A DNA stretch of 64,000 nt from the sequence record NC_024794.1, one strand, 5' to 3'. This stretch comes from Escherichia phage vB_EcoM_PhAPEC2. Both the position numbers and the translations under genes were made by a program. Of this stretch, positions 3,287 to 62,232 are shown piece by piece. The notes under the pieces are model-generated. The model saw nothing but the letters and a program-made list of their open reading frames with translations, was not told where the DNA came from and did not search any database. The number at the start of each line of letters is the position of its first letter. Within the stretch, counting starts at the first letter, position 1.

Positions 3287-4855
3287 ATGACTACTATCAA
3301 AACTAAAGCTCAGCTCGTAGACAAATGGAAAGAACTGCTGGAAGGTGAAGGCCTGCCGGAAATCGCTAATAGCAAGCAGGCTATTATCGCTAAAATCTTC
3401 GAAAACCAGGAAAAAGATTTCGAAGTATCCCCTGAATATAAAGACGAGAAAATCGCTCAGGCATTTGGTTCTTTCTTGACCGAAGCTGAAATTGGTGGTG
3501 ACCACGGTTATAACGCTCAGAACATCGCAGCAGGTCAAACCTCTGGTGCAGTAACCCAAATTGGGCCGGCAGTTATGGGTATGGTTCGTCGTGCTATTCC
3601 TAATCTGATCGCTTTTGATATTTGTGGTGTTCAGCCTATGAACAGCCCTACCGGTCAGGTATTTGCTCTCCGTGCAGTATATGGTAAAGACCCTATCGCT
3701 GCTGGCGCTAAAGAAGCTTTCCATCCGATGTATGCCCCAGACGCGATGTTCTCTGGACAGGGTGCTGCTAAGAAATTCCCAGCTCTGGCTGCCGACACTA
3801 CTACTGTTGTAGGTGATATCTATACTCACTTCTTCCAAGAAACTGGTACTGTATATCTGCAAGCTTCTGCTGTCGTAACACTTGATTCTAGTGCGACTGA
3901 TGCAGCTAAATTAGATGCCGAAGTTAAGAAACAAATGGAAGCTGGTGCACTGGTAGAAATCGCTGAAGGTATGGCTACTTCTATCGCTGAACTCCAGGAA
4001 GGTTTCAATGGTTCTACCGATAATCCATGGAATGAAATGGGCTTCCGTATCGATAAACAAGTTATCGAAGCTAAATCTCGCCAGCTGAAAGCTGCTTACT
4101 CTATCGAATTAGCACAAGACCTCCGTGCAGTACACGGTATGGATGCTGATGCTGAACTGAGCGGTATTCTGGCTACAGAAATTATGCTAGAAATCAACCG
4201 TGAAGTTGTTGATTGGATTAACTACTCGGCACAGGTTGGTAAATCTGGTATGACCCTGACTCCGGGTTCTAAAGCTGGCGTATTTGACTTCCAGGACCCG
4301 ATTGATATCCGTGGTGCTCGTTGGGCCGGTGAAAGCTTTAAATCTCTATTGTTCCAGATTGATAAAGAAGCAGTTGAAATTGCTCGTCAAACCGGTCGTG
4401 GTGAAGGTAACTTCATTATCGCTTCCCGTAACGTAGTTAACGTACTGGCTTCAGTTGATACTGGTATTTCTTACGCTGCACAGGGTCTGGCTTCTGGTTT
4501 TAATACCGACACTACTAAGTCTGTATTTGCAGGTGTACTTGGTGGTAAATACCGCGTATACATCGACCAGTATGCTAAACAGGATTACTTCACCGTTGGT
4601 TACAAAGGCGCTAACGAAATGGATGCAGGTATTTACTATGCTCCTTACGTTGCACTTACCCCACTGCGTGGTTCCGATCCTAAGAACTTCCAGCCGGTAA
4701 TGGGCTTTAAAACTCGTTACGGTATCGGTGTTAACCCGTTTGCTGAAAGTTCCCTGCAGGCTCCAGGTGCTCGCATCCAGTCCGGTATGCCGTCTATCCT
4801 GAACAGCCTTGGTAAGAACGCTTACTTCCGCCGTGTATATGTAAAAGGCATCTAA
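3287..4855 (+). CDS. 23: Major capsid protein gp23
   Basis: 522 aa; sequence matches T4 gp23 (521 aa) as recalled; strong codon bias; tetraloop terminator downstream. Confidence 0.95.
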   Translation: MTTIKTKAQLVDKWKELLEGEGLPEIANSKQAIIAKIFENQEKDFEVSPEYKDEKIAQAFGSFLTEAEIGGDHGYNAQNIAAGQTSGAVTQIGPAVMGMVRRAIPNLIAFDICGVQPMNSPTGQVFALRAVYGKDPIAAGAKEAFHPMYAPDAMFSGQGAAKKFPALAADTTTVVGDIYTHFFQETGTVYLQASAVVTLDSSATDAAKLDAEVKKQMEAGALVEIAEGMATSIAELQEGFNGSTDNPWNEMGFRIDKQVIEAKSRQLKAAYSIELAQDLRAVHGMDADAELSGILATEIMLEINREVVDWINYSAQVGKSGMTLTPGSKAGVFDFQDPIDIRGARWAGESFKSLLFQIDKEAVEIARQTGRGEGNFIIASRNVVNVLASVDTGISYAAQGLASGFNTDTTKSVFAGVLGGKYRVYIDQYAKQDYFTVGYKGANEMDAGIYYAPYVALTPLRGSDPKNFQPVMGFKTRYGIGVNPFAESSLQAPGARIQSGMPSILNSLGKNAYFRRVYVKGI

Positions 4856-4879
4856 TCTTAATTGATTAAATCTTATTTT

Positions 4880-4905
4880 GGGAGACTTCGGTCTCCCATT
4901 TTTGG
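4880..4905 (+). terminator. Intrinsic terminator after gene 23 (UUCG tetraloop hairpin plus U-tract)
   Basis: GGGAGAC-TTCG-GTCTCCC followed by ATTTTTGG. Confidence 0.7.
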
Positions 4906-4907
4906 TT

Positions 4908-5177
4908 TTATTTCTGTGCAATTTCGATGTAAGTTTTCAAAATATTTTGCCAATTAGGCATACCTTCTTGGACATATGCTGGAGAACCGTCTTTGTTTTT
5001 GAATGATGCAAGTTTATCAGTGGCCCAATAACCTTTAGCTCGAGCTTCAGAATCAACTTTCATCCATACTTTGTTGAAGGCATTACCATTAACTTTTGCA
5101 CCATATTTTTCTACTAACTTAACTGCTTCAGCTTCCAGAACTTTTAAAGTATCTCGTAAGAAACGTGCTTTAGTCAT
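4908..5177 (-). CDS. Hypothetical protein (89 aa), opposite-strand insertion between genes 23 and 24
   Basis: ORF with GGAG SD 8 nt upstream of ATG and its own early-type promoter; occupies the position of segD in T4 but is not endonuclease-like. Confidence 0.5.
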   Translation of the reverse strand: MTKARFLRDTLKVLEAEAVKLVEKYGAKVNGNAFNKVWMKVDSEARAKGYWATDKLASFKNKDGSPAYVQEGMPNWQNILKTYIEIAQK

Positions 5178-5207
5178 TTTGTTTACTCCTCTGTAGTTGA
5201 TAAGTCT

Positions 5208-5237
5208 ATAGTATCACATACCAAATACGTTGTAAAC
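5208..5237 (-). promoter_or_regulatory. Early sigma70-type promoter driving the 89-aa ORF between genes 23 and 24
   Basis: Minus strand GTTTAC / 17-18 nt / TGaTACTAT (extended -10-like). Confidence 0.5.
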
Positions 5238-5243
5238 AATCTT

Positions 5244-5251
5244 TATAAATA
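5244..5251 (+). promoter_or_regulatory. Late promoter TATAAATA upstream of gene 24
   Basis: Exact TATAAATA 28 nt upstream of gene 24 ATG. Confidence 0.7.
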
Positions 5252-5278
5252 ATCTATATCACATAAGGAAAAAATGCA

Positions 5279-6562
5279 ATGAGTAAAATCCAAAAATTAT
5301 TGCGTGAATCTACAACGTCTACTAGCAACTCAATTGGTCGCCCAAATCTCGTTGCTTTGACTCGCGCTACGACTAAATTAATATATTCTGACATTGTAGC
5401 AACACAAAGAACTAATCAACCTGTTGCTGCTTTTTATGGTATCAAATATCTTAACCCAGATAACGAATTCACATTTAAAACTGGTGCTACTTATGCGGGT
5501 GAAGTTGGATATGTAGACCGAGAAAAAATTACTGAGCTCACAGAAGAATCAAAAGTCACACTAAATAAAGGCGATTTTTTCAAATATAATAATATCGTCT
5601 ATAAAGTGTTAGAAGATACACCATTTGCAGATATTCAAGAAAGTGATCTAGAATTAGCTCTTCAGATTGCAGTCGTTCATTTAAAGGTACGGTTATTTTC
5701 AGATGCAGCGGTAACAAGCAAATTTGAAAGCTCTGGTAGCGAAATTTCTGATGCAAGATTCCAGATTAATAAATGGCAAACTTCAGTCAAATCTCGTAAA
5801 CTTAAAACCGGCCTCACGGTTGAATTAGCGCAAGATTTGGAAGCGAATGGATTTGATGCCCCTAACTTTTTAGAAGATTTGCTTGCTACTGAAATGGCTG
5901 ATGAAATTAATAAAGATATTCTTCAGTCTTTAATTACTGTATCGAAACGTTATAAAGTTACTGGAATTACTGACACTGGATTTATTGACTTGAGCTATGC
6001 ATCCGCTCCAGAAGCAGGTCGTTCATTATATCGAATGGTGTGTGAAATGGTATCACACATTCAAAAAGAGACAACTTATACTGCGACGTTTTGTGTAGCC
6101 TCAGCTCGTGCAGCTGCTATTCTTGCTGCTTCTGGTTGGTTAAAACATAAGCCAGAAGATGACAAGTATCTTTCACAAAATGCTTATGGATTCTTGGCAA
6201 ATGGATTACCTCTTTACTGCGATACTAACAGTCCGTTAGATTATGTTATTGTGGGTGTTGTAGAAAATATCGGCGAAAAAGAAATTGTAGGGTCCATCTT
6301 TTATGCTCCATACACTGAAGGAGTAGATTTAGATGACCCGGAACATGTTGGTGCTTTTAAAGTTGTAGTTGATCCAGAAAGCTTGCAACCGTCTATCGGA
6401 TTACTGGTTAGATATGCTTTATCAGCAAATCCTTACACAGTAGCAAAAGACGAAAAAGAAGCGAGAATAATTGATGGCGGGGACATGGATAAAATGGCAG
6501 GACGTTCAGACTTGTCTGTTTTACTCGGTGTTAAATTGCCTAAAATTATTATAGATGAATAA
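5279..6562 (+). CDS. 24: Capsid vertex protein gp24
   Basis: 427 aa, same length as T4 gp24; sequence matches as recalled; late promoter at 5244. Confidence 0.9.
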   Translation: MSKIQKLLRESTTSTSNSIGRPNLVALTRATTKLIYSDIVATQRTNQPVAAFYGIKYLNPDNEFTFKTGATYAGEVGYVDREKITELTEESKVTLNKGDFFKYNNIVYKVLEDTPFADIQESDLELALQIAVVHLKVRLFSDAAVTSKFESSGSEISDARFQINKWQTSVKSRKLKTGLTVELAQDLEANGFDAPNFLEDLLATEMADEINKDILQSLITVSKRYKVTGITDTGFIDLSYASAPEAGRSLYRMVCEMVSHIQKETTYTATFCVASARAAAILAASGWLKHKPEDDKYLSQNAYGFLANGLPLYCDTNSPLDYVIVGVVENIGEKEIVGSIFYAPYTEGVDLDDPEHVGAFKVVVDPESLQPSIGLLVRYALSANPYTVAKDEKEARIIDGGDMDKMAGRSDLSVLLGVKLPKIIIDE

Positions 6563-6595
6563 ACAAAAAAAAGGGACCGTAAGGTCCCTTTTTCG
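6563..6595. terminator. Bidirectional terminator between convergent genes 24 and rnlB
   Basis: A-run, GGGACC-GTAA-GGTCCC, T-run. Confidence 0.7.
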
Positions 6596-7594
6596 TTATG
6601 ATACTAATTCAATCCATGCAGGACGCAGAACATCTTGCACCATTCGGACTAATTCTTTCTTAACAAGATTCGGATTATCAGATGATGTTAATACAATACC
6701 TTCACGAGAAGTTTCTTCCAGAATATCTTGAACAGTTAATCCCATCACTTTGCCAAAATCTTTTGGCGTTACAGCCCCAATCTTAGAAATCACATTATTA
6801 ACACGATTTAATGTAACATAACAAGCTAGAACATCAAGCAGGTTTTTGTCAATTTCTGTTAATGGAACCTGAGTTTTAATAGGCTTATCAGACTTTTTCT
6901 TTTCACTGAATTTAGAGTTCTTGCACTTAATAGCTACACGAGTACCGTTTGGCAGCCATTTAGGGAAACAGGGCTTCAGAACATAACCTTCTGCCGTATT
7001 ATCGCCAATAACATTAGCATCAAATACACAATTATTTGCTTCTACAAGGTCTTCTGACGCAGTAGCATTATAAGCGGCTAAGACAGAATCAAGGTCGTTT
7101 GGAATCATGATAAGAGAATCAAATGTTCCACGTCCAAGCATTGGTGCCATTTTAAAACCGAATTCATTACAGAAATCTTGCATTTCGTAATCGGTCAAAT
7201 ACGTATTATCACCACTTTCTGTATTGATAAGGATATCGAACACATAAAAATCTTTTTCACCGTAGTCAACACCTTTCTGGATTCCACCACCAGCGAATTC
7301 ACCGAATACTTGATATGATACGGCTCGAGCTGTGTACATGAATTCCTGAACGGCTTTAATAGCTTTATCATACTTCTTGAGTACGATTTCATAACCATAA
7401 AAATCTTCTGCTGGAAGAATAGGGCCTGTGCGCTTGGCGCATGTGACGTTGTCACGTTCAATTATTAACGAGAAGTTAGTCCCATGGATTTTCTCACGTG
7501 CTACCCAAACACCAGTAGTCAAACCATTAGTGTAGAGTTTTTCAATAAACTTAGAGTTGTAGTGGTTTTCAAGACTGCTGTATTTCTTAAACAT
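6596..7594 (-). CDS. rnlB: RNA ligase 2
   Basis: 332 aa; nucleotidyltransferase motif I KIHGTN near N-terminus; matches T4 Rnl2 as recalled; MotA-box middle promoter upstream. Confidence 0.9.
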
Positions 7595-20547: not shown

Positions 20548-20577
20548 ATAGTATCACACATCCATGTGTTTGTAAAC
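20548..20577 (-). promoter_or_regulatory. Early sigma70-type promoter within the 3-prime end of alt
   Basis: Minus strand GTTTAC / 18 nt / TGaTACTAT, upstream of ORF 20225..20518. Confidence 0.45.
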
Positions 20578-30873: not shown

Positions 30874-30934
30874 TCTGTTTTCCTCATTGTGTTGGTAGAG
30901 TCATAGTATCACAACTCCACCATGTTGTAAACCA

Positions 30935-34404: not shown

Positions 34405-34466
34405 AATTTTCTCCTCGTGTTGTTGATAAAAGCCATAGTAGCACCTTCCTTGGTGTTTGTAAACCA

Positions 34467-35600
<1,134 letters not shown>

Positions 35601-35647
35601 TCAGTTAGTTTTTTTTAAATTGTACCACAATCCTTGTGGTGTGTAAA

Positions 35648-36058
35648 CTACTTTTTCTTATGTTGGATATTCCAAGGCGGGTTGAACTTTTTGATAAAAA
35701 GCGGTTCTTCAAGGTCCATTGTTGCGATGGTCATTGAACCAAGTTCGTTGGTGACTGAAAGGTCAAAACATTGGCGGGCCCAGAATTCAACCTTTTTTCC
35801 TTGCATTAAGGCATCCAAAATCATAAGTGATTTTCTTGAATCTGAAGTCTGGTCTTTTCGATTTATGGCTGTTCGATAATAGTTAATGCGTTTCTTTAAA
35901 TTCTTGGTTTTACCAATATACACAAGTTCGTCATCTATAGCAATAGCGTATATGACATTTTTCTTATTAGGGACATCAACTGTTTTAATTGTTGCATCTT
36001 CTAATAGCTCCAATTCTGTATATTTAATAAAGGAATATTCGGCGGCAATATCTTTCAT
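35648..36058 (-). CDS. denA: Endonuclease II (GIY-YIG family)
   Basis: 136 aa, same as T4 EndoII; GIY-YIG-like VIYAIAIDDELVYIGKTKNLKKRINYY. Confidence 0.8.
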   Translation of the reverse strand: MKDIAAEYSFIKYTELELLEDATIKTVDVPNKKNVIYAIAIDDELVYIGKTKNLKKRINYYRTAINRKDQTSDSRKSLMILDALMQGKKVEFWARQCFDLSVTNELGSMTIATMDLEEPLFIKKFNPPWNIQHKKK

Positions 36059-56240: not shown

Positions 56241-56286
56241 AACGTTTTATTCATTCCATTTGGTTGATACGAGTATAGTACCATTA

Positions 56287-56448
56287 TCAGTGTTGATTGT
56301 AAACAGCTTTTTCTACACTTTTAACGTAATCAGTGTAGTCTTCCTGTTCATACGAGTGTAAGGCCAAGAATGTGGCTAATAGTTCATTATAGACTAAAGC
56401 CTCACGCTCACGTTCTGCCTCTACTACGTTCTGAAGATTATGGCTCAT
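56287..56448 (-). CDS. Hypothetical small protein (53 aa from internal Met)
   Basis: AAGGAA SD 4 nt upstream of internal ATG; the longer 71-aa frame would overlap the upstream ORF. Confidence 0.35.
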   Translation of the reverse strand: MSHNLQNVVEAEREREALVYNELLATFLALHSYEQEDYTDYVKSVEKAVYNQH

Positions 56449-58118: not shown

Positions 58119-58751
58119 TCACAGTACGTTAGTTACAAGGGTAATGATTTCTTTGGACACATTAGGGAAGTCAATGTAAGTATATTTACCACCGATCTTA
58201 ATCTTAACATCATTTTCAAGAGAAGTAAACAGCTTTGATTCAGTTTCTGACATGTTGTATGCAAAGATTCTAAGAGCGCCGTCTCGACGAATTTCGATCT
58301 GACGAATACCTAGAACTCGTTTTGCAAATCGAACTTCCAAGTTACTACGGTTTTCACCAATTTCTTTAACTTCAACTTTATCTTTAATATTTTCAAAAAC
58401 AAAGTTTGCTAGTTCATGCATTTCAGGAGTAACTCCACGTGCTTTTCTAGTGTTACGTTTCTGAAGAAGTTCTGGAGCATTTTCTTGGGCAAAGAGGTCT
58501 GCAGCTTTTTGGATAATATCCATTGCTTCACCAGTTGCCACAAGTCCATCACCAGATTTTTCGACTAAACCTTTCTTAATCAATACACCAATGTTAGAGT
58601 TAACAACCGATGCATTGTATTCCGCTTCTAGAGCTTCACGGACATTGGCAGCAGTGGTGAAGTTGTTCTTAATGATATAAACCATTATTGCAGCAGTTTT
58701 TTCATTCAGAGCGTTTTCAGAAGCTTTGATGATGTAAGTAACTTTAGACAT
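58119..58751 (-). CDS. motA: Middle transcription activator MotA
   Basis: 210 aa (T4 MotA 211 aa); sequence matches as recalled; early promoter upstream. Confidence 0.85.
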   Translation of the reverse strand: MSKVTYIIKASENALNEKTAAIMVYIIKNNFTTAANVREALEAEYNASVVNSNIGVLIKKGLVEKSGDGLVATGEAMDIIQKAADLFAQENAPELLQKRNTRKARGVTPEMHELANFVFENIKDKVEVKEIGENRSNLEVRFAKRVLGIRQIEIRRDGALRIFAYNMSETESKLFTSLENDVKIKIGGKYTYIDFPNVSKEIITLVTNVL

Positions 58752-61650: not shown

Positions 61651-61900
61651 TTTGTTTTCCTCTTGATTTGATGTGATTACTATACCATAATCCTATCGTG
61701 ATGTAAACAATTAAATTACATTAAAATATGTTAAAGCCAACCATGTTCCAGTGAACGAACATGCAATGTAAAAACCAGTATCACAAATTGTTCTTAGTAC
61801 AATAAGAAGTGCATTTTTCATAAGTACCTCAATGCAATTGAAAATATTATACAAATCATAGGGATACTAAGCAACCATATTCCAATCCACATTTTAGAGC

Positions 61901-62164: not shown

Positions 62165-62232
62165 GATGTTATCCTCTTTTAGATAGGACTACTATATCAT
62201 AGTCCTACTTAGTTGTAAACACTTTTATGAAA

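Follow-up and report, generated by a model that had tools for sequence, protein, structure and literature searches.

What is an 89-amino-acid open reading frame (ORF) doing on the opposite strand between the genes for the major capsid protein and the capsid vertex protein of a T4-like phage? The locus lies in a stretch of 64,000 nucleotides from Escherichia phage vB_EcoM_PhAPEC2 (NC_024794.1), referred to here as the window. This DNA belongs to a Mosigvirus (RB69-like), and over the 751 bp from 4700 to 5450, which span the junction, identity is 99.9% to Shigella phage phi25-307 and 99.7% to many other Mosigvirus records. The original prediction, made from the sequence alone, held that the ORF is an early-type gene cassette inserted between two late genes and furnished with its own sigma-70-like promoter.

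The gap between gene 23 (3287-4855, plus strand) and gene 24 (5279-6562, plus strand) is exactly intergenic and measures 423 bp (4856-5278). Both flanks are conserved. Gene 23, encoding the major capsid protein, is identified by the ORF list and by the same annotation in Mosigvirus records that are 99.7-99.9% identical, and gene 24, encoding the capsid vertex protein, by the ORF list and annotated relatives. Between them, the ORF occupies 4908-5177 on the minus strand, stop codon included, and its C-terminus reads as originally quoted. The Shine-Dalgarno sequence that had been given as GGAG can be read from the sequence as GAGGAG at 5191-5186 (minus strand), 8 nt before the ATG at 5177. The ORF does sit, as claimed, between the gene 23 tetraloop terminator and the gene 24 late promoter. 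The first of these, found by a terminator scan at 4879-4903 on the plus strand, is an intrinsic terminator with an 8-bp stem (TGGGAGAC/GTCTCCCA), a TTCG (UUCG) loop and a TTTTT run. Its fold z-score against shuffles is -3.7 for the plus strand, and the minus strand gives -4.7. Read on the minus strand, this hairpin lies 5 nt beyond the stop codon of the ORF, and no U-run follows it there. The late promoter, TATAAATA, lies at 5244-5251 on the plus strand.

The predicted early promoter of the ORF was located by a motif scan at 5237-5208 on the minus strand, diverging from the late promoter, with only 6 bp between TATAAATA and its -35 box. Written out, it is GTTTACA-N14-TGATACTAT, with GTTTAC at 5237-5232, the TG of an extended -10 element (TGaTACTAT) at 5216-5215 and TACTAT at 5213-5208. 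The sequence upstream of it, TTATTTATAAAGATT, is AT-rich. The site thus combines the elements of a T4-type early promoter, namely the -35 box, the TGn and TAnnnT parts of the -10 region, their spacing and the AT-rich upstream sequence. Transcription is predicted to start near 5201. A generic sigma-70 scan of this short AT-rich junction finds two sites where 2.1 are expected, which is chance level. The motif GTTTAC-N15-TGnTAnnnT, searched for across the whole window, occurs nine times, always on the minus strand, where 0.07 copies are expected, and none of 100 shuffles reaches nine. Three of these nine copies, including the one that serves the 89-aa ORF, have GTGATACTAT in common. The other eight lie at 20548-20577, 30903-30932, 34435-34464, 35619-35648, 56275-56304, 58201-58230, 61679-61708 and 62191-62220. 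When strict and looser matches are pooled, an early-promoter map of the window holds 18 sites against 3.9 expected. An Rfam search of the junction returns sub-threshold noise only.

The ORF is a real protein-coding gene under purifying selection. The codon log-likelihood is 0.57 bits per codon in its own frame and 0.00 or less in the five other frames. Long genes average 0.34 +/- 0.13 by this measure, and the ORF ranks second among the 74 ORFs of 60-120 aa. Values of dN/dS, taken from pairs whose synonymous sites are unsaturated, are 0.10 (JS98 vs Bp7), 0.08 (JS98 vs VR5) and 0.14 (JS98 vs 04086). Together, the codon signal and these ratios show that the frame is not open by chance. The original prediction would have been abandoned for an ORF with neither relatives nor a codon signal, and this one has both. 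It matches the family PHROG 6003 over its full length (E = 2.1e-45; residues 1-89 align with positions 1-90 of a 90-position profile). Because dN/dS is low within types, there is no sign in these comparisons of the ongoing diversifying selection that is often met in arms-race genes.

Among about 119 Mosigvirus records, about 116 keep the frame whole, the disrupted copies being those of the RB69 reference, mogra and 310Ecol104PP. These lesions may reflect dispensability or merely sequencing errors. In RB69 (NC_004928, L023 9255-9540, corresponding to window positions 4900-5185), the gene is annotated as two pieces, ORF188c (41 aa) and ORF189c (29 aa). Compared with the window, the split is due to a clustered block of mismatches with a +1 insertion, followed further on by a -1 deletion, and it is either a real laboratory-strain pseudogene or the product of errors in the 2003 Sanger record. 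In the mogra copy (L004 2001-2269), the loss of one base from an A-run splits the frame, and the copy of 310Ecol104PP (P0019) is truncated to 64 aa. Dispensability and homopolymer sequencing errors are both possible causes of these two lesions.

The distribution of the gene shows how the junction is used. A tblastn search gives matches in 238 phage records, of which about 119 reach at least 80% identity (Mosigvirus) and about 119 fall below 60%. The gene is present in the BASEL phage Bas47 and in AV110, and is missing from T4. The divergent members, at 30-38% identity, include JS98 orf173, VR7 ORF190c and their relatives in Dhakavirus and Gaprivervirus. These are true homologs, annotated as hypothetical, that belong to PHROG 6003 and occupy the same slot in the same orientation, and they form a second allele class. 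Regulatory sequences are retained along with them. In an alignment of the upstream intergenic region from the three genera, neither the -35 box GTTTACA nor the late promoter varies (the latter in all six aligned junctions), and TGnTACTAT and GAGGAG are kept in Mosigvirus and Dhakavirus. The terminator hairpin is also kept in Dhakavirus. In VR7 the stem differs, and T-runs flank it on both sides.

Comparison of the 23-24 junction across T4-like genomes, which had been proposed as a check, shows that it may be empty or may hold segD, other ORFs or homologs of the 89-aa gene. In Tequatrovirus AR1, Jiaodavirus KP179, Bragavirus Pm5461 and Zedzedvirus ZZ1, it is an empty spacer of 81-93 bp that contains the terminator and late promoter only. 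In Krischvirus MIZ2 it holds two unrelated tiny ORFs that share their strand with the capsid genes. T4 carries segD there, as the original prediction had stated, on the strand opposite to the capsid genes. Upstream of segD lies ATTTAC-N15-TGATATTAT, whose -35 box is 5 bp from TATAAATA. The segD gene therefore resembles the 89-aa gene in its slot between the gene 23 terminator and the gene 24 late promoter, in its orientation and in its promoter, which in both cases follows the pattern [G/A]TTTAC-N15-TGnTAnnnT with the -35 box 5-6 bp from TATAAATA. Its RNA belongs to the early class in time-resolved T4 omics (PMC9697503 supplement). The junction is thus a variable 'expression slot', bounded at one end by the gene 23 hairpin and at the other by two diverging promoters, an early one on the minus strand and the late one of gene 24 on the plus strand. 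That segD shares this promoter architecture, and that the contents of the junction are interchangeable, mark the slot as a socket pre-wired for early expression.

The two genes differ in what they encode. SegD is a free-standing homing endonuclease of the GIY-YIG type, 223 aa long instead of 89, and the small ORF gives no indication of spreading itself by DNA cleavage. No nuclease motif had been recognised in the original reading of its translation, and Pfam searches agree. None of 14 family members matches a GIY-YIG or HNH motif or a DNA-binding domain, the combination expected of a homing endonuclease. That the ORF might be a degenerate remnant or a DNA-binding module of an endonuclease such as SegD, as the shared slot, orientation and promoter architecture could suggest, is effectively refuted by an hhalign probability of 1.2% between the family profile and SegD, by the GIY-YIG and HTH_17 profile matches that SegD has and the family lacks, and by the full length of the family (84-93 aa) in every lineage.

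Evidence for mobility comes from comparing the gene with its backbones. Tequatrovirus, which does not have the gene, shares 93-95% identity with Mosigvirus in gp23 and gp24. Between Mosigvirus and JS98/VR7, identity is 84% for gp23 and 70% for gp24, but only 34-37% for the 89-aa protein. A metagenomic contig (L020) has a JS98/VR7-type backbone (gp23 92-93%, gp24 91-94%, duplicated gene 24) and carries an ORF allele that is 62% identical to the Mosigvirus type and 29-30% to the JS98/VR7 type. This mismatch means that allele type does not track the backbone.

Homologs also exist outside T4-like genomes. An exhaustive HMMER search of 1.84 billion representatives yields only two further true relatives, and both are of this kind. 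The first (P0021, 87 aa) is found on an unclassified contig (L009) within an array of small same-strand ORFs. Its nearest relative in an isolate, at 60.7% identity, is in the Vequintavirinae (rV5-like) phage ABPH49, where the gene likewise sits in a same-strand array of small, spaced ORFs. The second (P0023, 84 aa) follows lambda-J-like tail genes on a siphovirus-like contig (L010), at the boundary with the replication module. The tail-tip gene of this contig has 72% DNA identity to Serratia phages of about 42 kb. The copies on both contigs have their own sigma-70-like promoter upstream and a hairpin downstream. Broadening the profile search with the outgroup members and scanning IMG/VR reveal no new lineages, and a plasmid collection has no match to the family. 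PHROG scans of the neighbours in the non-T4 contigs return only families that lack an assigned function, such that guilt by association yields nothing.

Several other database matches were set aside. Two Ig-repeat surface proteins, P0022 (1347 aa, E = 1e-15) and P0024 (3916 aa, E = 5e-7), are repeat-inflated HMMER matches whose best single stretches score 12.3 bits (i-Evalue 1.2e4) and 8.1 bits (i-Evalue above 1e4), respectively. P0020 is a chimeric metagenomic protein of 160 aa, an assembly chimera that carries residues 32-64 of a Dhakavirus-type sequence.

These genome comparisons show that the gene behaves as a mobile accessory cassette, exchanged between backbones and also maintained as a stand-alone unit in unrelated enterobacterial phages. 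The claim of an inserted cassette is supported. Empty junctions, the different cargo of T4, the allele discordance of L020 and the autonomous distant units all speak for it, but a recent insertion is not what is seen. The gene is an old resident in Mosigvirus: it is fixed in essentially all members, it keeps its position in Dhakavirus and Gaprivervirus, where it is likewise fixed, and its base composition is that of the phage (GC 0.35-0.36 for the ORF, similar to gene 24 at 0.33-0.41).

The product is a protein of 10.1 kDa with a pI of 9.6, a net charge of about +5 and no visible hydrophobic segment. Of nine T4-like members, all but one (04086, net charge +2.6) have pI values of 9.3-9.8 and a charge of +4.6 to +5.6. 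M1, K3, F6, G31, N32, N35 and Q70 are invariant in the whole family, and an NGNAxN motif and W51 are invariant among T4-like members. AlphaFold2 predicts the following succession of elements with good confidence (pLDDT 89.1, pTM 0.76): a helix at residues 3-25, a second at 31-48, a beta-hairpin at 56-60/66-70 and a final helix at 76-88. The same topology is obtained when the siphovirus-like homolog, the most distant member, is used as the target (pLDDT 89.6).

Sensitive homology searching and structure prediction, the first checks that had been suggested, thus recover the PHROG 6003 family and a confident fold that has no specific match. Foldseek finds nothing below E = 0.49 in the PDB, and a structure search of BFVD returns the protein's own family only. 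Profile searches of Pfam, NCBIfam, PADLOC and PDB sequences give no consistent match. Known anti-defence proteins with solved structures, among them Ocr, Acb2, Tad1/2 and Gad1, show no similarity in sequence or fold. A Pfam match to DUF4859 was rejected because it reaches 17.9 bits against a cut-off of 22.6 and concerns only two of 14 members, and the predicted fold is mostly helical. A Big_2-like Ig domain was rejected as well, there being no significant single-domain match and the matches to giant Big_2-repeat proteins being repeat-inflated. Two database names, 'glycosyl hydrolase family 25' (EAWsc9, L005 2001-2282) and 'NADPH-dependent curcumin reductase CurA' (P0006, JGI), are backed by no profile and look like annotation artefacts. 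A literature search with the identifiers RB69ORF188c/189c, VR7ORF190c and bas47_0011 finds no mention in the papers covered, and the protein is absent from the supplements of Silas et al. (bioRxiv 10.1101/2023.04.06.535777).

How the gene might act can be proposed from these properties. Host sigma-70 RNA polymerase would transcribe it in the first minutes of infection, as for T4 segD. We infer this timing from the nine-copy family of minus-strand motifs, from the invariance of the -35 box in three genera and from the architecture shared with segD, together with the early class of segD RNA. The product would be a soluble cytoplasmic protein with neither a catalytic motif nor a membrane segment, and it would act stoichiometrically by binding a partner instead of by catalysis. 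The idea of a non-enzymatic binder derives from the lack of profile matches, the confident fold without a specific PDB or BFVD match, the pI of 9.6 and the absence of a hydrophobic segment. The small size and the absence of motifs are also compatible with catalysis or a structural role. The likeliest partner would be a host component or a defence factor of the host or of a prophage, so that the gene would serve host takeover or counter-defence. The net charge of +5 suggests that this partner may be an anionic ligand, for example a nucleic acid or a nucleotide-based signal, though the basic charge is not universal in the family (P0021 has a pI of 8.0). The gene would be dispensable for virion assembly, even though it lies among head genes. 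The whole composite, in which an early cassette gene supplies a non-enzymatic early binder for host takeover or counter-defence, is moderately probable. Its first part, that this is a cassette and an early gene, is highly probable, and its assignment to counter-defence or host takeover is a tentative best guess.

According to one alternative, the protein is not an inhibitor of a host defence protein but a nucleic-acid-binding regulator of the T4 MotB or RegA type that binds phage or host DNA or RNA and modulates transcription, translation or the nucleoid. It is encouraged by the basic pI and positive charge across T4-like members, and by a helix-helix-beta-hairpin arrangement that loosely recalls helix-plus-wing DNA binders; winged-helix domains are among the top Foldseek matches in the PDB. 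We regard a regulator of this kind as unlikely.

In the next alternative, the early promoter is itself the functional element and the ORF is incidental. An 'anti-late' RNA, antisense to gene 23, would silence premature expression of the capsid gene. Read-through into antisense gene 23 is plausible, as the minus-strand hairpin has no U-run in Mosigvirus and Dhakavirus, and the promoter has diverged less from genus to genus (79% column identity) than the ORF (30-38% amino-acid identity). Purifying selection on the ORF (dN/dS of about 0.1), its frame-specific codon signal and its conserved Shine-Dalgarno sequence argue otherwise. So does the presence of the ORF far from capsid genes in three contexts other than T4-like genomes, of which two can be assigned to other phage lineages. 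Most T4-like genera, moreover, have no such promoter at the junction, and the VR7 hairpin has T-runs on both sides. An antisense effect is possible as a side-effect at most; it can hardly be the sole function, a case that is very unlikely.

The location between genes 23 and 24 could also point to a head-assembly or virion-associated accessory protein, and there is a very weak PHROG match to an 'internal virion protein' family (E = 0.09). However, the gene is on the opposite strand and has an early rather than a late promoter, and neither T4 nor four other genera, with head genes at 82-95% identity, possess it. Its copies in ABPH49 and L009 reside in arrays of small same-strand ORFs and away from structural genes, and the L010 copy is an autonomous unit after tail genes. 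A role in the head is highly improbable.

An early binder carried by a mobile cassette, the reading preferred here, can be set beside several kinds of accessory gene already described in phages. Cassettes of ORFans flanked by promoter early stem-loops (PeSLs) have been reported for T4-type phages (Arbiol et al. 2010, PMC2839356; Comeau et al. 2014, PMC4122927); neither paper mentions the gene 23/24 junction. As in those cassettes, an ORFan here has a strong sigma-70-like early promoter with AT-rich sequence upstream and a stem-loop terminator. Related phages also show the same polymorphism of presence, absence and replacement, the junction being empty or holding segD or the ORF. Unlike in a PeSL cassette, there is no stem-loop in or beside the promoter (fold z = -0.44 and -0.35 on the two strands of 5178-5280), the sole strong hairpin being about 310 bp away at the far end of the ORF. 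Furthermore, no homologous PeSL copies bracket the ORF, where only short, chance-level repeat matches are found, and the gene resides inside a conserved virion module instead of a hyperplastic region. With two defining features absent, the locus should not be filed as a PeSL cassette, though similar shuffling may have shaped it.

Morons of lambdoid phages, a concept due to Juhala and Hendrix, are autonomous promoter-gene-terminator units located between genes that are adjacent in relatives. The 89-aa gene has its own promoter and terminator in such a position, but with the difference that its hairpin lacks a U-run on the strand of the ORF. The unit on the siphovirus-like contig L010 has the same structure. 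In contrast to morons, the GC content is not atypical, and the gene belongs to a lytic phage and would be expressed during lytic infection and not from a prophage.

The accessory regions described by Silas et al. (bioRxiv 10.1101/2023.04.06.535777) hold variable cargo between conserved core genes. At this junction the cargo states are empty, segD, ORF type A, ORF type B and other small ORFs, and the gene is small, fast-diverging and horizontally exchanged like the genes of those regions. The difference is that it forms a single-gene locus and not a cluster.

In itself, an early ORFan cassette in a T4-like phage is of a well-known kind, and hundreds of genomes already list the gene as 'hypothetical'. 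What the present comparison adds is the socket shared with segD, the discordance between allele and backbone, the spread across phage families and a confident fold that has no known relatives. A fixed promoter/terminator socket in the conserved head module thus hosts unrelated cargos, namely nothing at all, a homing endonuclease or one of the two allele classes of the gene. Small early ORFans number in the hundreds in T4-like phages, and several have recently proved to be counter-defence or host-takeover factors. Among them, the 89-aa gene is a tractable candidate because it is a single-gene unit with a defined promoter, occurs in more than 230 coliphages, is absent from T4, is mobile and has a confidently predicted fold. 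A published screen of Mosigvirus early proteins (AV110) picked its candidates by homology to T4 early proteins. Since the 89-aa gene has no T4 homolog, it falls outside that selection criterion. Emp/Gp94 is a different protein of 109 aa.

A bolder reading is that the family founds a new class of early effector with a previously undescribed fold, devoted to counter-defence or competition between phages. Its members might, for instance, act as a sponge for an anionic immune signal or block a defence nuclease. Enterobacterial phages of the T4-like, rV5-like and siphovirus kinds would pass the gene among themselves, and in T4-like genomes it and a homing endonuclease would be rivals for the same pre-wired slot. 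We consider this extension doubtful.

The genes around the slot vary in ways of their own. Gene 24 is tandemly duplicated (24a/24b) in L002, L003, L011 and L020, which represent Dhakavirus, Gaprivervirus and related contigs, and is single-copy in Mosigvirus, Tequatrovirus and contig L022. In the Mosigvirus Shigella phage JK36 (MK962754.1, 109301-110598), the match to the C-terminal 151 aa of gp23 consists of two pieces spread over about 1.3 kb, a region annotated as two 'major capsid protein' CDS. This arrangement suggests that JK36 gene 23 might hold an insertion, perhaps an intron or a homing endonuclease gene. Gene 23 also appears to be interrupted or misannotated in the Dhakavirus Escherichia phage 04086 (L007 2768-5046), where it is annotated short (3502-4611) with a gap of about 730 bp after the ORF and an extra opposite-strand CDS for a 137-aa hypothetical protein at 4633-5046. 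On the other side of gene 24, around 6560-6600 in the window, the minus-strand ORF of rnlB (6596-7594) nearly abuts gene 24, and the near-identical record NBG1 has overlapping terminators annotated on both strands between these two converging genes.
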